The notes: generated by a model from the letters alone, not told the origin. DNA of 27,823 bases from an uncultured Fimbriimonadales bacterium (GCA_964470265.1 CAYYCA010000002.1:1-27823), one strand, 5' to 3'. Positions 1-21,492 are shown, counted from the stretch's first letter. Numbers and translations are program-made.

Positions 1-248
1 CTCAAGCGCAGATGGCTCTGACACGGGCGGGACGCCCGTGCCACGCAGTGTGGCTGGAGCATCTCGCTCAAGCGCAGATGGCTCTGACACGGGCGGGACG
101 CCCGTGCCACGCAGTGTGGCTTGAGCGTCCCGCTCAAGCATAGGAGACGCTGGTGGCTGCACGGGCGGGACGCCCGTGCTACGCGGTGTGGCTTGAGCGT
201 CTCGCTCAAGCGCAGATGGCTCTGACACGGGCGGGACGCCCGTGCCAC
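1..248. repeat. Tandem array of REPIN/BIME-like units (paired inverted REP palindromes), truncated by the window edge
   Basis: Units 1..44 (partial), 50..110, 116..182 and 188..248, period 66/66/72 nt. Each unit is GTGG-CTTGAGCG-TCT/TCC-CGCTCAAG, a linker, then CACGGGCG-GGA-CGCCCGTG-CCAC/CTAC. A GTGG/GTAG tetranucleotide 5' of a GC-rich palindrome is the known REP architecture. Confidence 0.9.
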
Positions 249-879
249 TGGAGGCTAAGAACGCAGGCTTGTAAAACTCCAGCACGCGTTCGACAATCTG
301 TTCAAGAGGCTGGTCGGGGCGCTCCATCATCCACTCCATCTGGCAAAGACGATAGAGACGGATGGCCTGATGCGCCAGTTCTTCCGCCGAAACATCGGTG
401 CGAAATTCGCCTGTGCGCTGTCCCGCTTCAAATCCCGTTCGTGCACGCTCGGTCGCCTCTTTGGTGATTTCCAGCATCTGCTCGCGCAACACCGAGCTGT
501 GGCAGCAAGCGACCATCATCGAACGCGCTATCTGAATCGAGCGTCCCTCGCGCTGCGCGATAAAGAGCATCACCTGCCGCAGCACTTCCCACTGACTCGG
601 CGCGTTCTCGGGCTGAAGCGAATCCAAGAATTCGTACACCTCGTCCGTCATGTCACGGATGTAGGCGTGCAGCAGGTGTTCTTTGGTGGGGAAATAGGTG
701 AAGAATGTGCCTTTGGCGACATCGGCGAGTTCCGTGATTTCCTCAACCGTGACCTGATCGAAGGGTTTTTCGTGCATCAACGCGAGCGCCGCCTCGATGA
801 GCCGCTGGCGGGTCTCCTCCCGACGGCGCTCGCGTCGATTCGCGTAGGGACGCGATGCGGTTGTGATAGCTCGTTCCAT
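1..879 (-). CDS. TetR/AcrR family transcriptional regulator; 3'-partial, no stop codon in the window, reads into the REP array
   Basis: Manual translation from ATG 879: MERAITTASRPYANRRERRREETRQRLIEAALALMHEKPFDQVTVEEITELADVAKGTFFTYFPTKEHLL..., a typical TetR HTH, and a C-terminal GQRTGEFRTDVSAEELA segment. Absent from the ORF track because it has no stop in the window. Confidence 0.9.
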   Translation of the reverse strand, partial: MERAITTASRPYANRRERRREETRQRLIEAALALMHEKPFDQVTVEEITELADVAKGTFFTYFPTKEHLLHAYIRDMTDEVYEFLDSLQPENAPSQWEVLRQVMLFIAQREGRSIQIARSMMVACCHSSVLREQMLEITKEATERARTGFEAGQRTGEFRTDVSAEELAHQAIRLYRLCQMEWMMERPDQPLEQIVERVLEFYKPAFLASSGTGVPPVSEPSALERDAQATPRSTGVPPVQPPASPMLERDAQATLRGTGVPPVSEPSALERDAPATLRGTGVPPVSEPSALE

Positions 880-902
880 AACGCTCGTTCTGATATGCAA
901 GT

Positions 903-926
903 GCTTGAGCGAGACGCTCAAGCCAC
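903..926 (-). repeat. Single REP palindrome in the tetR 5' leader
   Basis: Reverse complement is GTGG-CTTGAGCG-TCT-CGCTCAAG-C, identical to the array arm at 188..211. Confidence 0.85.
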
Positions 927-933
927 TGCAGGT

Positions 934-966
934 TTGAACCGACGGTCATTTCTGACCGTCGGTCAA
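934..966. promoter_or_regulatory. Putative TetR operator (double site)
   Basis: Perfect 10-bp inverted repeat CCGACGGTCA-tttc-TGACCGTCGG (939..962). The right half also contains the palindrome TGACC-GTC-GGTCA (953..965). It overlaps the expected start site of the tetR promoter. Confidence 0.7.
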
Positions 967-967
967 G

Positions 968-997
968 ATTATACCACAGGTCAGACGGATTTGTCAA
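968..997 (-). promoter_or_regulatory. Consensus sigma70 promoter of tetR
   Basis: Minus strand TTGACA (997..992), 18-nt spacer ending in TGG (extended -10), TATAAT (973..968). Confidence 0.85.
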
Positions 998-1004
998 GGG
1001 GGCG

Positions 1005-1832
1005 CTATGCGCTCCAGACTGTATCTACCTGCGCCCGCAGAAACGCCAGCGATTTCTGGAAGCCCGCGTCGCCCTGCGCCTGACCATCTTCGATGCTCAG
1101 GTAGCCCGCGTAGCCGTGCGCTTTCAGAATCTGCAGCAGGGGTTGGAACGGAACCGCGCCCTCGCCCAGCACACTGTGCTGGTACTCGCCCGGCAAACGG
1201 TCGCCCGCATGCACATGATGCACCTTGTGCGCCACGTGCTGCAAAATCGCCACAGGATCTGCGCCCGTCATCAGCGGGTTCGCGAAGTCGAAGTTTACGC
1301 GCACAGGCGTCGGCTCAATCTGCTCGAAAATCTGCAGGAAGCGTTCGGGCAGGAACGAGAAGTCCTCGCGCGTCCACAGGCGGTCTTTGTAGTGGTTCTC
1401 GTAGCAGGGATACACGCCACAGGGCACAGCGTACTCGGCGAGTTTGACCATGCACTCCACGGCGTACTGAACGGCGTCGCTGGGTTCCACGCCGTCGTGA
1501 ACCATGCCGGCGGTGGTGCGCACGGCGTTTGCGCCGAGTTCCGCCGCCCAGTCCACGCGCTGTTTCATCGCGTCCAGTTCGGCGGCTCGCACGGCGGGGT
1601 CGGGGTTCGTAAAGTCGGGCGCGCAGGTAATCTGGCTCACACGCAGCTCCAGCGCGTTCAGCTCGGCTTTCACCTGCGGCAGGTTCTCGTTGCTGAGAAA
1701 AGCGTGATAGATCTCCACCGCCTGCACGCCAAACATAGGGGCTTGACGCAGCCAGTCCAACACCGTCATCTGCCCCTGCAGAATCGGGTGAATCAGGCGC
1801 ACGGGCATCCACGCAATCGTCGGCTTAGCCAT
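1005..1832 (-). CDS. Sugar phosphate isomerase/epimerase (xylose isomerase-like TIM barrel)
   Basis: Metal-binding motifs YENH, NFDFAN, HVHAGD and YLSIED. Start placed at ATG 1832, which overlaps the rbfA stop by 8 nt. Confidence 0.8.
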   Translation of the reverse strand: MAKPTIAWMPVRLIHPILQGQMTVLDWLRQAPMFGVQAVEIYHAFLSNENLPQVKAELNALELRVSQITCAPDFTNPDPAVRAAELDAMKQRVDWAAELGANAVRTTAGMVHDGVEPSDAVQYAVECMVKLAEYAVPCGVYPCYENHYKDRLWTREDFSFLPERFLQIFEQIEPTPVRVNFDFANPLMTGADPVAILQHVAHKVHHVHAGDRLPGEYQHSVLGEGAVPFQPLLQILKAHGYAGYLSIEDGQAQGDAGFQKSLAFLRAQVDTVWSA

Positions 1833-2157
1833 CTTTGAGTAAGCGGGCGATTCGATCCGCATCACGGAGCGAGGGGTCGTCGACAAACACCAGTTTCGGG
1901 ATGCGCTTCAGGTGCAACCGTTTGCCCAGCAGCCCCTTGATATAGCCCGCCGAGTGTTGCAGCTTATCCAGCGTCTGCTTGCGCCGTCGCTCGTCGCCCA
2001 ATACGCTGACATAAACCGTTGCCTGTGAAAGGTCGCGCGCGACCTTCACGCCCGTAATCGTCGCCAAGCCTAAATCCTGTCCTGCTAAATCCTTCAATAG
2101 CACCTGACTGAGTTCGGCAGTCAGGAGCGATTCCAGCCGTTCCATGCGTCCGCCCAT
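1825..2157 (-). CDS. rbfA: 30S ribosome-binding factor A
   Basis: TITGVKVARDLSQATVYVSVLG...GKRLHLKRIPKLVFVDD matches RbfA; SD AAGGAGG 6 nt before ATG 2157; follows ylxP. Confidence 0.9.
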   Translation of the reverse strand: MGGRMERLESLLTAELSQVLLKDLAGQDLGLATITGVKVARDLSQATVYVSVLGDERRRKQTLDKLQHSAGYIKGLLGKRLHLKRIPKLVFVDDPSLRDADRIARLLKDG

Positions 2158-5718: not shown

Positions 5719-6711
5719 ATGATTCAGGAAACCACAACCCCCTGGCTCTCGGAGACAGAAGCTCATGCAGTGGCGGAGCAGGCGCGCGCCATCATACGCG
5801 CCGTCGAGCAGGTGATTCTGGGCAAGAGCGAGACGGTGCGCATGATGGTCATCGGTCTGCTCAGCGGCGGGCACTTGCTGATTGAAGACATCCCTGGCGT
5901 AGGCAAGACCACGCTGGCGCGTGCGATTGCCAAAGCGATTGGCGGGCAGTTCCGCCGCATCCAGTTCACGCCCGACCTGCTGCCCGCCGATGTCACTGGC
6001 TCCGTGATTTACAATCAGGCGCGCGGCGCGTTCGAGTTCCACCCTGGTCCGATTTTTGCGAACATCGTGCTGGCGGACGAGATTAATCGCGCCACGCCGA
6101 AAACGCAATCCGCTCTGTTGGAGGCGATGGAGGAGCGTACGGTCTCGGTCGAGGGCGAGTCGCACCCTCTGCCGCAGCCGTTCCTCGTAATCGCCACGCA
6201 GAACAATATTGAGATGGTGGGCACATATCCCCTGCCGGAGGCGCAGATGGATCGCTTCTTCGCGCGTATCTCGCTGGGCTACCCTTCGCCCGAAGTGGAG
6301 GCGCAGATTTTGGAGACCCGCCAGCTCGACTCGCCGCTGGAGCAGCTCCAGCCGGTGCTGACGCCGGAGCAACTGGTGGCGCTGCAGCATCAGACGCGGC
6401 GCGTGTATCTCAGCCCTGCCGTGCGTCGTTATCTGGTCGAGGTCGTGAGCGCGACGCGCCGCCATCCGAAGGTGGCGCTGGGGGCAAGCCCGCGCGCGTC
6501 GCTCGCGCTGATGCTCGGCGCACAGGCGCACGCCCTGCTCGCCAATCGCAACTATGTCTCCCCCGACGATGTGCAACAGATGGCGATTCCCGTGCTGGCG
6601 CACCGCCTGATGCTCCGTTCGGACGGCATGGGCGCAACGCGCGCCGAGACCGTGATTCGAGAGATTCTGAACCAGGTTCCCGTGCCGATAGGGAGCGACG
6701 CGCCTGTATGA
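5719..6711 (+). CDS. MoxR family AAA+ ATPase
   Basis: EDIPGVGKTT (Walker A), RIQFTPDLLPADVTG, LADEINRATPKTQSALLEAMEE, YPLPEAQMDRF and GASPRA. Confidence 0.95.
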   Translation: MIQETTTPWLSETEAHAVAEQARAIIRAVEQVILGKSETVRMMVIGLLSGGHLLIEDIPGVGKTTLARAIAKAIGGQFRRIQFTPDLLPADVTGSVIYNQARGAFEFHPGPIFANIVLADEINRATPKTQSALLEAMEERTVSVEGESHPLPQPFLVIATQNNIEMVGTYPLPEAQMDRFFARISLGYPSPEVEAQILETRQLDSPLEQLQPVLTPEQLVALQHQTRRVYLSPAVRRYLVEVVSATRRHPKVALGASPRASLALMLGAQAHALLANRNYVSPDDVQQMAIPVLAHRLMLRSDGMGATRAETVIREILNQVPVPIGSDAPV

Positions 6712-7775
6712 GAGAGTATAAACTGACCGCGCTGATGGCGGCGACCTCGTTCCTGCTCTGTTCAGGGCTGATGACGAACAACCGCCAGATGTATTGGATG
6801 GCGAGCGTGCTGGGCGCGCTGATGCTGGGCGCATACCTGCTGGTCAAGCGCGGCGCACAGAGACCCAGCGTCGTTCGTCAGTGCCCGCCCGAAATGGTGG
6901 AGGGCGAAACCGTCGAGGCGCAGCTCGAGGTCGCGCTGCAGGCGCGCGCTGGCTTGCTCTGGGTGCAGGCGCAGGATACCGCCACCTCGGGGCTGGCGAT
7001 TGAACCGATTGAAACGGAGCCGATTAGCCTGTTTAGCGGCGCAGCGCGCTACCACCTCACCGCCCTGCGCCGCGGGGAACAACGGCTCGGACCCGTGCAA
7101 TTAACGCTCTCCGATCCGTTCGGGCTGTTTATTCACCATCAGCAGATTGAGGACATCGCGCCGATTCTCGTGCTGCCGCGCCCTGTGGCGCTGCCGAACT
7201 GGAACTGGGAAGGCGGCGGACGCGGGCGGTTTGTTGCCTCGACCCTGCGCGGGCGACGCGGCGAAGGTACAGACTGGCACGGCGTGCGCCCCTATATTCC
7301 GGGCGACCCACTGCGCCGCATCCACTGGCGCGCGACCGCCCGCCACGGCGACTGGCATGTGAAAGAGTTCGAGACGAGCCAGCTCGCGCCCACTGTGATT
7401 GCCCTTGAACAAGCCCCCACATGGCGCGCCGAGGGCGACGCCTACCCCGATTTCGATCAGGCAATCCGCCATATCGCGTGGATTGCGCTGGAAGCGCCTC
7501 GGCAGGGTGTGGCGCTGATTCTCGTCGGTTCGAACCTGCCCGAAATCCGCCTCACGCCCGAAACTTACGCCGACTCGCGCGTTCTGTTGCGCCAGCTCGC
7601 CCGCGTCCAGCCCGACGCGCGCCACTCGATTCTGGACGACCTCCCGCGCCTGATTCAGCAGTACGGCGAGCAGTATCGCATCGCGCTCTTCGCGCCGCCG
7701 CAGGAATACAGCGTGTTCCAGGCAAAGGCACAAAGTTATCAGGCGCAGGGTTATTCGGTAGAGGTCTATGCGTGA
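6708..7775 (+). CDS. DUF58 domain membrane protein (usual MoxR partner)
   Basis: Two N-terminal hydrophobic helices; RPYIPGDPLRRIHWRATAR...VKEFE signature; ATGA overlap with moxR. Confidence 0.92.
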   Translation: MREYKLTALMAATSFLLCSGLMTNNRQMYWMASVLGALMLGAYLLVKRGAQRPSVVRQCPPEMVEGETVEAQLEVALQARAGLLWVQAQDTATSGLAIEPIETEPISLFSGAARYHLTALRRGEQRLGPVQLTLSDPFGLFIHHQQIEDIAPILVLPRPVALPNWNWEGGGRGRFVASTLRGRRGEGTDWHGVRPYIPGDPLRRIHWRATARHGDWHVKEFETSQLAPTVIALEQAPTWRAEGDAYPDFDQAIRHIAWIALEAPRQGVALILVGSNLPEIRLTPETYADSRVLLRQLARVQPDARHSILDDLPRLIQQYGEQYRIALFAPPQEYSVFQAKAQSYQAQGYSVEVYA

Positions 7776-9006
7776 GCAGTCGCCTGAGCCGCCTGCGAAG
7801 TGGACGCTGTATGGCTTGCCCCTGCAGAAGGGACTGGCGTTAGGGGTAGGCGCGCCGCTCTATCTGCCCACTTACGGTAGTCCCATCTGGTTCGACCCAC
7901 GCCTGTTCGCGCAGGACGAAGACGAGTGGCACGCCATCGAGTACCGCATGCCCACCGAGCCAGTAGAGGTCATCGGCATCGTACGCGATTTACATGACAT
8001 CCCGCCGGTGCTTGCGCCCTATGTGCGCGTGGTCGGCTGGATTGTGGAGCGTGCGCCCGATCCGCCCCTGCCGCAGACGCCCGTACTGCTCGTGCCGAAA
8101 CTGCCTGCGCTCCTGCCCCCTGAAGCGACGGTCGTGCTGGATGCGAACGCGGGCGTGGCATACATCGAGCCGAGCGTTGCGGTACTGGCGCGCTACCAGA
8201 GCCAGCTGCTGCGCGTCGCCACCCATACGCGATTCCATCTGGAAGGCGAGCATCTGCCCGTGACCACTTGGGACGGCAGGCGCGTGTTGGTCGGGGGCGT
8301 TGCAGAAGACTGGGATGCGGTTGCGCAGACGGCGGACGCGGGCGCGGAGCTGATCTGGCTCATGACGGACGCCCTGCCCGAAAGCGTTTCAGCGATTGCC
8401 CACGCGCTCGGCGGGAAGCCGCTCTGGCTATATGACCCGCTCGCCCCGACGCGCGACGACGCCCACTGGCAACGCCTGCTACGCATGAGCGCGGAGCTAA
8501 ACCTCACGCTGTTCGTGGACACACCCGACGCGCTGCGCGAGGCGCGCGACTCGCTGGAGGTGGCGCGAGAGGCATTGCGCACAGAACATGTCCCCATCGG
8601 CGCGCTGGAGGTGGGGCTGACGATGGACGCTGCAGGCGCATACACGCTCACCGAAAACGAGGCGGATTCGTTCCCACTGGAACCGCCCTACGCCGTCTGC
8701 TGGCGCGCGGCGGGGTTCACGAAGCCGATAGCGGAGTCGCTCTGGGCGCAGCAGACGGTTGCCCGCGCGCTGGGAGTCCGACGCGCTCTGATTGCGCCCG
8801 ATGCAGCCCCTGATACGCTGGCAACCGCGCTCGGATACGAGCCGCATGCGCTCTTTCTACCGCCTGAGCAGATTGCGGACGCTAAGACGCGCCTCGCGCT
8901 GCTCAGCGTCGCCGAGTGTCGTGAATGGCTGCTGCAACGGCTGCGACGCTGGAGCGACCGAACGATTCGTCGCTTGCCTCAACAGTGGATCGAGAGCAGG
9001 ATATAA
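7768..9006 (+). CDS. Degenerate PTS Enzyme I (PtsI)-like protein, probably catalytically inactive
   Basis: Collinear EI-like segments: GLPLQKGLALG, VVLDANAGVAYIEP, PVTTWDGRRVLV, DAGAE, LREARDSLEVAREAL...LEVGLTM and IADAKTRLALLSVAEC. The TSH and CGE catalytic motifs are absent. Alignment by eye only. Confidence 0.6.
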   Translation: MREQSPEPPAKWTLYGLPLQKGLALGVGAPLYLPTYGSPIWFDPRLFAQDEDEWHAIEYRMPTEPVEVIGIVRDLHDIPPVLAPYVRVVGWIVERAPDPPLPQTPVLLVPKLPALLPPEATVVLDANAGVAYIEPSVAVLARYQSQLLRVATHTRFHLEGEHLPVTTWDGRRVLVGGVAEDWDAVAQTADAGAELIWLMTDALPESVSAIAHALGGKPLWLYDPLAPTRDDAHWQRLLRMSAELNLTLFVDTPDALREARDSLEVAREALRTEHVPIGALEVGLTMDAAGAYTLTENEADSFPLEPPYAVCWRAAGFTKPIAESLWAQQTVARALGVRRALIAPDAAPDTLATALGYEPHALFLPPEQIADAKTRLALLSVAECREWLLQRLRRWSDRTIRRLPQQWIESRI

Positions 9007-9034: not shown

Positions 9035-9094
9035 TCGTCGGCGGGACGCCAACGCTACGAACGCGCTCGCGTAGCGTCGGCGTCCCGCCGACGA
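9035..9094. repeat. Back-to-back REP pair between convergent genes
   Basis: TCGTCGGCG-GGA-CGCCAACG-CTAC (9035..9058) and GTAG-CGTCGGCG-TCC-CGCCGACGA (9071..9094); same GCGTCCCGC core as the array. Confidence 0.85.
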
Positions 9095-9117: not shown

Positions 9118-9888
9118 TCACTCACTCCCCACTGCTTCCAGCACGCCCCCGAACTTGCGCTGACGCCCCTGATAGTCCAGAATCGCCTCAATTAGATGCT
9201 CCATCGTGAAGTCGGGCCACAGGGTGGGCGTGATATACAGCTCGGTGTAGGCGGTCTGCCATATTAAGAAGTTGCTTGTGCGCCGCTCGCCCGCCGTGCG
9301 AATCAGCAGGTCGGGGTCGGGCAGGTCAGGTTGATAAAGGAACGCCTGCACGGTTTCTTCATCGATGGCGTCGGGTTCGAGCCGCCCTGCCTGTACCTCG
9401 CGGGCAATCGCGCGCATGGCGTCCACCAGTTCGGCGCGTCCGCCGTAGTTGATGGCTAAGTGCAGGATAATGCGCCGATTGTGCGCGGTCATCTGCTCGG
9501 CGCGGCGCAGGGTGGCTTGCAACTCGGGTGAGAGTTCCTCGATACGCCCGCTGAATCGAATCTGCACGCCGTTGCGCATCATCACGGGCAGCTCCTCGCG
9601 GGCGGAGCGCTCCAGCAGGCGCATCAGTCCCTCCACCTCTTCCTGCGGGCGACGCCAGTTCTCCGTGCTGAAGGTATAGAGCGAGAGCGCCTCGATGCCC
9701 AACTCGGCGCAGCCCAGCACCATGCGTCGGACGGTGCTGTGTCCGTTTGCGTGCCCGACGAGTCGGTGCAGCCCGCGCGCCCGCGCCCAGCGCCCGTTGC
9801 CGTCCATAATCATCGCGATATGGCGGGGCAGGCGCGTCAGGTCTACCCCGCGCCGCGCCGCCGCCTCGCGCCAGTCAATTACCTGCAT
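9118..9888 (-). CDS. uppS: Undecaprenyl diphosphate synthase
   Basis: PRHIAMIMDGNGRWA, FSTENWRRP, INYGGRAE and PDLLIRTAGERRTSNFL. Confidence 0.96.
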   Translation of the reverse strand: MQVIDWREAAARRGVDLTRLPRHIAMIMDGNGRWARARGLHRLVGHANGHSTVRRMVLGCAELGIEALSLYTFSTENWRRPQEEVEGLMRLLERSAREELPVMMRNGVQIRFSGRIEELSPELQATLRRAEQMTAHNRRIILHLAINYGGRAELVDAMRAIAREVQAGRLEPDAIDEETVQAFLYQPDLPDPDLLIRTAGERRTSNFLIWQTAYTELYITPTLWPDFTMEHLIEAILDYQGRQRKFGGVLEAVGSE

Positions 9889-15744: not shown

Positions 15745-15750
15745 ACCCTG

Positions 15751-15756
15751 ATTGTA
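15751..15756 (-). promoter_or_regulatory. -10 element TACAAT of the leaderless ABC exporter gene
   Basis: CAGGG-TACAAT-cagggt-GTG. Confidence 0.6.
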
Positions 15757-15762
15757 CCCTGC

Positions 15763-15814
15763 GTAGCACGGACAGTCCTGTCCGTGCTCGCTTGGACAGG
15801 ACTGTCCAAGCTCC
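15763..15814. repeat. REPIN-like inverted REP pair between divergent promoters
   Basis: GTAG-CACGGACA-GTCC-TGTCCGTG-C (15763..15787) and, on minus, GGAG-CTTGGACA-GTCC-TGTCCAAG-C (15814..15790). Confidence 0.85.
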
Positions 15815-15820
15815 ATGGGG

Positions 15821-15826
15821 TATACT
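15821..15826 (+). promoter_or_regulatory. -10 element TATACT of the leaderless RAPP uORF
   Basis: GGGG-TATACT-ctattt-ATG 15833; no SD. Confidence 0.6.
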
Positions 15827-15832
15827 CTATTT

Positions 15833-20670: not shown

Positions 20671-21399
20671 ATGCGCAACCTGCGCCTGCAGGTCGAGTAC
20701 GACGGTACCGACTTTCACGGCTTCGCCCGACAACAGGGCGTGCGCACCGTACAGGGCGTGCTGGAGAGCGCACTGCAGGCGACGCTGAACGAACCGATTG
20801 AGGTCATCGGCGCAAGTCGCACCGACGCGGGAGTCCATGCGCGCGGGCAGGTGGTGAACTTTCTCACCAGTCGCCCCGTGCCCGTCGAACGGCTGACGGC
20901 GGTTCTGAACCGTCGCCTGCCGATGGATTTGAAAGTGATTCGCGCGCGAGAAGTTGGCGCGAACTTCCACGCGCGATTCTCAGCGAAGAGCCGCGTGTAC
21001 CGCTACAGCATCTACACGGGGGCGCACCCCTCCGTGTGGAAGATACGGTACGCATGGCATTACCCCCATGCGCTGGACTGCGCGGCGATGCAGGCGGCGC
21101 TGGAGTTGATTCTGGGCGAGCACGACTTTCGTCCGTTCTCGGTGAAGATACCGACCGAGAAAAACACGGTACGCACGCTGTATCGTGGGATTGTACAGCC
21201 GACGCGCGACGGCGTGCGCATCGAGCTGGAAGCAAACGGCTTCCTGCGCGGCATGGTGCGCCTGATTGTCGGCGAGTTAGTGCGCGTCGGCGAAGGGAAG
21301 CAAGCTATCGGCTCCCTGCGCGAGCGATTGGAACGCCGAGTTCAGGCGACCCAGATGGCGCCCGCGCAGGGATTGTGCCTGATGCGGGTAAAATACTAA
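20671..21399 (+). CDS. truA: tRNA pseudouridine(38-40) synthase
   Basis: EYDGTDFHGF, GASRTDAGVHA, FHARFSAKSRVYRY, NGFLRGMVR and APAQGLCL. Confidence 0.96.
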   Translation: MRNLRLQVEYDGTDFHGFARQQGVRTVQGVLESALQATLNEPIEVIGASRTDAGVHARGQVVNFLTSRPVPVERLTAVLNRRLPMDLKVIRAREVGANFHARFSAKSRVYRYSIYTGAHPSVWKIRYAWHYPHALDCAAMQAALELILGEHDFRPFSVKIPTEKNTVRTLYRGIVQPTRDGVRIELEANGFLRGMVRLIVGELVRVGEGKQAIGSLRERLERRVQATQMAPAQGLCLMRVKY

Positions 21400-21404
21400 T
21401 TCGC

Positions 21405-21472
21405 GTGGCACGGGCGTCCCCGCCCGTGCGGGCGGTTGTGGCTTTTGTGCTTGAGCGGGACGCTCAAGCCAC
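21405..21472. repeat. REPIN-like unit between truA and rplM
   Basis: GTGG-CACGGGCG-TCCC-CGCCCGTG...CTTGAGCG-GGA-CGCTCAAG-CCAC; the same two arms as the 1..248 units, in reverse orientation. Confidence 0.88.
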
Positions 21473-21492
21473 AGGCGAAGGAGGCAGCGATT

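Follow-up and report, generated by a model that had tools for sequence, protein, structure and literature searches.

The window analysed here is a stretch of 27,823 nucleotides from an uncultured hot-spring bacterium of the Fimbriimonadales (Armatimonadota), GCA_964470265.1 CAYYCA010000002.1:1-27823. At its left end, on the minus strand, lies tetR, a gene for a regulator of the TetR/AcrR family, whose reading frame runs from the ATG at 879 to base 1 through 293 codons and zero stops; translation of the window thus agrees with the initial annotation, which had described a frame open past the first base. Beyond F207, where the fold of the regulator ends, the frame continues through a tandem array. 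Bases 1-248 are a cluster of doublets of repetitive extragenic palindromes (REPs) tagged with GT(A/G)G. In orthologous loci, repeats of this kind lie at the junction of tetR and the first gene of an efflux operon. The best explanation, to which we give a probability of about 0.7, is that a REP family mobilised by a REP-associated tyrosine transposase (RAYT), with tens of copies in the window genome, has placed a cluster in frame between the end of the TetR fold and the native stop codon, and that the frame has been kept among relatives.

The regulator, the array and the native stop codon

The window protein has the N-terminal helix-turn-helix (HTH) of the TetR/AcrR family, with a match to TetR_N (PF00440) at residues 27-72 (E = 4e-14). 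PDB 3ang aligns with residues 16-203, and TtgR and MtrR are also among the PDB matches. An AlphaFold2 model based on 29 orthologues gives a predicted local distance difference test score (pLDDT) above 95 over residues 11-210 and shows nine helices, the last of which spans 192-207; model and alignment agree on the all-helical C-terminal ligand and dimerisation domain of the family. Core identity to intact orthologues ranges from 65% to 83%, and the protein collection holds no protein more than 83% identical to the window TetR. For residues 211-293 the pLDDT is 45-59 and no secondary structure is modelled, such that the REP-encoded tail is predicted to be disordered. One orthologue, P0039 (JGI, 216 aa), has a central stretch of about 70 residues that is Ala/Gly/Arg-rich and unrelated to the family, with both flanks normal, which looks like two compensating frameshifts or sequencing errors.

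Tandem Repeats Finder (TRF) reports a single array at 1-248, with a period of 66, 3.7 copies and 84% matches. The units start at spacings of 66, 72 and 66 nt, so that both periods are multiples of 3, and about 82 residues after the end of the fold at residue 207 are encoded by REPs; both points had been made in the initial annotation, the second as a minimum of 82 residues. Copy number and unit order to the left of about position 219 come from short-read assembly of a sequence that is repeated 10-40 times per genome. Each unit combines two short GC-rich palindromes, hairpins A and B, with strong predicted folding, and each hairpin has 5 matches in the window against 0.02 (A) and 0.08 (B) expected from shuffles. 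The encoded peptide follows the pattern GTGVPPV-x5-7-LERDAQAT-x3 and includes GTGVPPVSEPSALER, STGVPPVQPPASPMLER and DAQATPR. Across the window array two of six frames are open, and other arrays of the family have between 0 and 5 open frames. A missing stop is thus no improbable event in its own right, and it was rejected as significant alone.

The native end of the gene is seen in orthologous loci. Genes for an OEP (TolC-like) protein, a membrane fusion protein (MFP) and a resistance-nodulation-division (RND) pump follow tetR in the same direction in every orthologous locus fetched with called genes; one locus, L078, ends just after the start of the open reading frame (ORF) that follows tetR. 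In repeat-free orthologues, 11-14 more codons follow the end of the fold, for example LATHDLGKEANPCD or VNPERLIKEENR and then the stop. The OEP gene has its Shine-Dalgarno sequence and ATG within these codons, and the tetR stop overlaps the start as ATGA or ATGCGACTAA. Such an overlap is found in 15 of 16 orthologous loci. The overlap leaves no room for an intergenic spacer, and REPs at the junction fall inside the tetR ORF. In closer relatives, one to six REP hairpins stand directly after ...KPAFLA, and the same overlapping stop still ends the ORF; the tail there reads RSTDSPVRA...RLDTTVQAT because the hairpins have a different inner stem. The initial annotation had allowed for loss of the native stop. 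By this comparison it was not lost: the repeats sit upstream of the overlapping stop, and in REP-free orthologues, too, the stop comes only 11-14 codons after the fold, at the start of the efflux gene. The window ORF looks endless mainly because the contig ends within the repeat, where unitigs break at 219.

Frame conservation among relatives and in other genes

The junction was compared over the 16 orthologous loci, namely six without inserts, nine with REP inserts, and L074. From the codon after KPAF to the OEP ATG, the distance is 32 or 35 nt in the six loci without inserts, and 89, 98, 101, 104, 107, 149, 158, 275 and 821 nt in the nine that bear REPs. All of these distances are 2 mod 3, with L074 as the sole exception. 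In addition, 13/13 A and 13/13 B junction hairpins, from seven genomes, share one codon phase. An enrichment of frame-preserving lengths across related genomes, which the initial annotation had put forward as a check, is thus found, with all nine REP-bearing junction lengths in the tetR frame. Nine lengths in frame, against a background of about one third, argues for purifying selection on the tetR frame, as judged from sequence comparison.

The phase is not a property of the repeat family as such. Elsewhere, REP arrays have periods of 35, 36, 44, 46, 51, 55, 56, 57, 60, 61, 64, 69 and 70 nt, with residues mod 3 split 7/9/5, and an intrinsic triplet periodicity was rejected on these grounds. 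The offset from A to B is 1 mod 3 in 15/15 doublets within open spans of at least 900 nt versus 8/41 elsewhere. There is some circularity in this test, since CTTGAGCG contains a TGA that comes into frame in one of the alternative phases.

REP-bearing tails occur in at least 10 related genomes, and the close relatives L075, L072 and L066 are tail-less. One genome and one other sublineage differ in other ways. In the genome GCA_026003075, a DDE_Tnp_1 transposase gene (L006 2796-3863) lies directly upstream of tetR, and the tetR tail is degenerate and without recognisable hairpins, with the frame still kept. In L059-L065, the tetR stop is at the ancestral place and another palindromic element, resembling a MITE (miniature inverted-repeat transposable element), lies about 60-150 nt beyond it (e.g. 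L059 3230-3330). At these loci the OEP ORF is extended on its 5' side and takes in that element, GGTTCCCCCTGCAAGCAGGGGGAACC ... GGTTCCCCTCGCGAAGCGGGGGGAACC flanked by CCCCCTCCTTAAGG / CCTGAAGGAGGGGGG, in frame; the length differences between loci are all multiples of 3.

Doublets found in the metagenome-assembled genomes (MAGs) occur, in the same orientation and peptide phase (GTGVPPVQ..LERDAQAT), within other ORFs of sister genomes, including those for a CheA-type kinase, a SAM_HAT protein and an ADH-like protein with Pfam domains on both sides of the insert (Table 1); this census of REP-bearing proteins covers the fetched loci only. A doublet can be read without stops in four of its six phases, of which one alone is used inside genes; this suggests that the peptide has to be at least tolerable. 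A search of the protein collection with the 82-aa REP peptide returned no significant match, possibly due to the composition-bias correction of HMMER or to database size.

The repeat family and its transposase

The hairpins have the stem-loop form of GTAG-type REPs. In the window and in loci L001-L078, hairpin A has a GTGG or GTAG tag before it on the coding strand, and hairpin B has a GTGG tag before it on the other one. Every doublet carries its A and B tags on opposite strands, such that the pairing is inverted, as in REP doublets forming hairpins (REPINs) and bacterial interspersed mosaic elements (BIMEs). Many dispersed copies are indicated by word depth, by sites in the window and by a genome scan. 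In four hot-spring runs that hold the window genome, Logan word depth over 1-250 is 10-40x the single-copy level, and the REPs of locus L033 likewise reach 10-40x. A scan of the genome collection found hairpin B at 49 loci, mostly from two Fimbriimonadales MAGs, and three further REP sites lie in the window outside the array. With respect to location, the array at 1-248 is inside the tetR ORF, and the sites at 901-926 and 21402-21473 are extragenic. No Rfam family matched anywhere in the window.

A transposase for the family is found at the same junction in a sister genome, MAG SKW266 (L033), whose flank is about 88% identical to the window. There the tetR ORF (6196-7635) has 479 codons in one frame throughout, and encodes in order TetR, one REP doublet, a 200-aa Y1_Tnp/RAYT, two REP doublets, and EGNPCD with a stop that overlaps the OEP ATG. 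The RAYT segment matches PF01797, has relatives annotated as 'REP element-mobilizing transposase RayT', and retains intact HUH and Tyr motifs as well as every residue that is invariant in the family alignment. At the position where relatives start it lacks an ATG, GTG or TTG, and it lacks a stop where they end. It is flanked by the same REP doublets, exactly at the tetR-OEP junction. In the runs with the window genome, a homologue of the RAYT (about 83% identity) was detected at single-copy depth, with REP sequence before it; contigs in these runs also join hairpin B to the 5' region of an OEP gene. Because of these two observations, a RAYT may lie just left of base 1 of the window. A RAYT search did not recover the window species' own RAYT, the best match being 59% identical.

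The promoter region of tetR was also compared. The interval 934-997 is probably an autoregulated promoter and operator for tetR and the efflux genes, and the one consensus promoter at 997..968 appears to drive the whole operon. The solitary hairpin B at 901-926 is present in the window genome only and missing from all six aligned orthologues; by its position in the 5' untranslated region (UTR), it could affect the stability or translation of tetR mRNA. Two further palindromic sites of other types were noted. At 15750-15827 on the minus strand is a REP doublet of another stem variant (CTTGGACAGTCCTGTCCAAG + GCACGGACAGGACTGTCCGTGC-TAC), typical of related genomes, at the 5' end of an ABC exporter ORF; an ATG near 15822 shares its frame, and the doublet may be 5'UTR or decorate the N-terminus. 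At 9035-9094 is a near-perfect inverted repeat with 25-bp arms, formed by a pair of GTAG-tagged hairpins that belong to a third type (CGTCGGCG-TCC-CGCCGACG), between the convergent ORFs 7768..9006 (+) and 9118..9888 (-), a typical REPIN position.

Table 1. Coordinates of features in the window and, where a locus is named, of repeat-bearing genes in related genomes
Feature	Position	Strand	Details
tetR core, codons 1-207 (ATG 879 to F207 of ...LEFYKPAF)	259..879	-	HTH and helical ligand-binding domain
Out-of-frame TAG in Leu208-Ala209 codons (TTA GCC)	255..257	-	+1 frame
In-frame array, at least 3.7 REP doublets, encoding residues ~211-293	1..248	-	TRF; cut by the window end
Hairpin A, CACGGGCG-NNN-CGCCCGTG, copy 1	226..244		GTGG tag at 248..245, coding strand; codon phase 2
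Hairpin A, other array copies	160-178 (GTAG tag), 88-106, 22-40		All codon phase 2
Hairpin B, GTGG-CTTGAGCG-NNN-CGCTCAAGC, copy 1	188..211		Tag on plus strand; inverted relative to A
Hairpin B, other array copies	116-139, 50-73, partial 1-9		All finish in phase: CAA GCC ACN
Solitary hairpin B (GTGG-CTTGAGCG-TCT-CGCTCAAG, minus strand), ~32-nt insertion in tetR 5'UTR	901..926		Sequence match
Candidate TetR operator, inverted repeat TTGACCGACGGTCA-GAAA-TGACCGTCGGTTCAA, 33 nt	934..966	-	Directly after the -10; conserved in six orthologous loci, as the most conserved block of the upstream alignment
tetR extended sigma-70-type promoter, TTGACA, 18 nt, TG-TATAAT	968..997	-	12/12 matches; conserved in six orthologous loci
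Extragenic A + B doublet	21402..21473		3 nt past the stop of ORF 20671..21399; 20 nt before rplM-like ATG 21494
CheA-type kinase, five REP units between Hpt and kinase core	L022 522-2801		Pfam domains on both sides
SAM_HAT (SAM hydroxide adenosyltransferase), two units within SAM_HAT_C	L024 1246-2181		42 residues replace 8 of PDB 2cw5
ADH-like protein, one doublet between ADH_N and ADH_zinc_N	L044 3992-6193		Pfam domains
FlgA-like and FliH proteins, REP copies near N-termini	L034 1-1292 (minus strand), L041 1934-3166 (minus strand)

Competing explanations and comparison with known systems

In the explanation preferred here, a REP cluster would insert between F207 and the tetR stop, where the stop overlaps the OEP start, and the only copies to persist at the junction would be those of a single orientation and phase whose length is a multiple of 3. 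The persisting phase would be the stop-free GTGVPPV...LERDAQAT. Ribosomes that start at ATG 879 would translate the hairpins, giving TetR a disordered tail whose length tracks the repeat number, and termination would remain at the start of the pump gene. For the window, the ORF would run on to the left of base 1 and end at the start of the pump gene, perhaps with additional units or an in-frame RAYT, like that of SKW266, in between. Selection may keep the frame because it allows translational coupling with the pump genes, or because it prevents a long untranslated and structured gap (polarity). We infer that the REP-encoded tail is a tolerated passenger, because its sequence tracks the REP variant of each genome and tail-less close relatives exist. 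A further proposal, which we hold only tentatively and consider unlikely as it stands, is that the phase lock is functional: translation would melt the hairpins and carry ribosomes to the stop/start, allowing pump expression from the single tetR promoter, and the RAYT of the sister genome would be made only as a TetR-REP-RAYT fusion or by coupled translation.

Several results weigh against the preferred explanation. The array could not be extended to the left: Logan unitigs of X1-X4 break at 219 and none passes base 1. The window-genome runs contain a single-copy REP unit with a spacer (CCGTGCAAACCT) that is 17 nt shorter, and a Logan contig of the X18 metatranscriptome joins tetR 412..181 to such a short-spacer unit after the first unit. 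Raw metatranscriptome reads of X21 and X22 gave zero on window 1-2000. At L074, the tetR stop is a separate TAG 3 nt ahead of the OEP start, in a junction of 87 nt without recognisable hairpins and with a different relative frame. Finally, multiples of 3 can be inherited in part by duplication of an in-frame unit, such that the junction events are not all independent. On the side of searches, an exact 29-mer of the tetR/REP boundary had no match in the metagenome contig collection, and a protein-guided metagenome scan returned other species alone, at most 88% identical, with no public contig of the window species that spans the array. The X18 contig, derived from RNA, is the single RNA record of tetR together with the first REP unit, and carried-over DNA is a possible source of it.

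The short-spacer unit leads to a rival in which the frame is not kept in the window genome. An out-of-phase unit left of base 1, or in place of units 2-4, would close the ORF and leave the remaining REPs untranslated and intercistronic. The unit is an 80-nt unitig at single-copy depth in X1, X2 and X4, composed of a B hairpin, AGGTTTGCACGG and a B hairpin with most of hairpin A missing, and read by hand in the tetR frame it gives ...ATPRPCKPICA and then the TGA of hairpin B. Its link to tetR in X18, however, falls exactly on a 31-nt word that is repeated in many REP copies, so the joint is possibly a graph artefact and the path is ambiguous; 31 nt is presumably also the k used by Logan. Unitigs of X1 and X2 at single-copy depth (81-184 and 155-229) follow the window's own path, and all nine REP-bearing orthologous junctions are in frame. 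We consider closure of the frame in the window genome unlikely. It is quite unlikely that the array acts mainly as an RNA element, with hairpins that stop 3' exonucleases or end transcripts, a stop-less tetR mRNA subject to transfer-messenger RNA (tmRNA) tagging, less TetR uncoupled from the pump, and a full tail that is rarely made. REPs of Escherichia coli do stabilise upstream mRNA, and REPs near stop codons reportedly cause stalling and tmRNA tagging. The predicted structure of 1-270 is very stable (-142.9 kcal/mol, z = -6.3). According to PMC3733652, REPs favour sites just past ORF ends and are regarded as RNA elements. This reading leaves unexplained the single codon phase of all junction lengths and hairpins across genomes. 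Moreover, doublets are tolerated in the middle of the CheA-type kinase and SAM_HAT, whose downstream domains need translation; no terminator-like site was found when one was looked for in window 1-1100; and in the short junctions no separate promoter for the pump genes is evident.

The initial annotation had offered recruitment of the array as an expandable tail, and such a functional C-terminal domain, rich in Pro/Ser/Ala/Gly, would account for tails that are always in frame in the related genomes and for the use of a single stop-free phase in genes, by which peptide sequence matters at least for tolerance. However, the peptide changes wholesale with the REP variant of each genome (GTGVPPV..LERDAQAT vs RSTDSPVRA..RLDTTVQAT in relatives), and the same peptide occurs in unrelated proteins. 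The number of units varies from 1 to more than 4, once including a transposase, the tail has no predicted structure, and L075, L072 and L066 do without it, all of which makes recruitment very unlikely. We give almost no weight to the possibility that the open frame is an artefact or decay, caused by a 1-nt error near 255-300 or by loss of the native stop in a degenerating gene. What favours it is the TAG at 257..255, one base out of frame. The initial annotation was right that this triplet exists, in the +1 frame, but it is no near-miss or vestigial stop: it is part of the conserved TTA-GCC (Leu-Ala), which is present in orthologues with and without REPs, and REP-less orthologues lack a stop there too. 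The TAG was therefore rejected as a former stop. Logan contigs of five DNA runs (X1-X4, X7) agree with the window and carry no indel in 219-586; sequencing error is excluded for this interval, and with it the 1-nt indel once suspected at 255..300. The identity of the core to intact orthologues and its high-confidence fold also stand against decay.

REPs, REPINs, BIMEs, GTAG tags and RAYTs are defined in earlier work (Bertels & Rainey 2011, PMC3116915; PMC3337134; Di Nocera et al. 2013, PMC3733652), and RAYTs are typically single-copy (PMC5581495). The repeats at tetR resemble the GTAG-REP/REPIN-RAYT systems in their GC-rich hairpins, 5' GT(A/G)G tag, inverted pairs, arrays, tens of copies, genome-specific stems and, in the sister genome, a repeat-flanked Y1/HUH transposase. 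They differ in that the window cluster is inside an ORF with its units locked to one codon phase, and in that the RAYT of the sister genome is embedded in the tetR ORF without a canonical start or stop of its own. With regard to BIMEs of E. coli, two REP types (Y/Z) likewise alternate in orientation, in tandem and inside operons. Those BIMEs sit after stop codons and are untranslated, whereas the window array precedes the stop. The regulator itself is similar to AcrR, TtgR, MtrR and CmeR in its N-terminal HTH, helical ligand domain, palindrome at its own promoter (here a candidate operator) and, in orthologues, adjacent OEP-MFP-RND genes. Unlike them, tetR points in the same direction as the pump genes, overlaps the first of these, and carries a REP-encoded extension after the last helix.

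REPs within genes have been described before. In the Di Nocera et al. 2013 survey (PMC3733652), REPs with GTAG or CGTC tags are found in ORFs of several species, including Opitutus terrae and Thauera. The encoded stretches amount to 20-30 aa for dimers or groups and to 43-82 aa for clusters; about 10% lie C-terminally, where the ORF ends, and they are read as probably neutral insertions in linkers or termini. The rule that classical REPs are extragenic, invoked in the initial annotation, is thus followed by members in the window but is not absolute, given the intragenic REPs catalogued in that survey. The intragenic REPs of O. terrae and Thauera are alike in forming monomers, dimers and clusters within ORFs; here the host is of the Armatimonadota, the REP sequence is different, and the site is the overlapping stop/start junction of a regulator-efflux operon. 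Frame conservation across about 10 related genomes appears to be no part of that survey. Rickettsia palindromic elements (RPEs) are in-frame palindromic repeats in protein genes that leave a continuous and probably functional product (Ogata et al. 2000, as cited in PMC3733652). Comparison with RPEs, proposed in the initial annotation, is apt for behaviour only, and membership is not claimed: in the kinase, SAM_HAT and ADH-like ORFs, conserved protein lies on both sides of the in-frame insertion, and at tetR the insert is followed by just the last 5-8 codons or so, which also serve the next gene as ribosome binding site (RBS) and start. Most RPEs are single insertions, unlike the tandem array of the window. 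The RPE-1 elements are also longer, about 100-150 bp, and we know of no tie between RPEs and a RAYT.

Intragenic REPs are already documented, and the phenomenon is therefore known, here in a new phylum. What is uncommon, although not categorically new, is the phase-locked array at an overlapping stop/start in about 10 genomes and the RAYT within a host ORF of a sister genome. For annotation, ORFs that look long or 'endless' at the contig ends of REP-rich MAGs are often of this kind rather than fusions or lost stops, and tail length is unreliable in short-read assemblies. The locus offers a natural example of selfish palindromic repeats that colonise coding sequence: where genes overlap without a spacer, the survivors would be those in a stop-free phase and in multiples of three, and the host protein would get a variable, disordered tail. 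If the phase lock reflects translational coupling, the locus would be a simple system for the interplay between REP structure and ribosomes inside operons, and, if functional, the lock would tie REP mobilisation to de-repression of the efflux operon.

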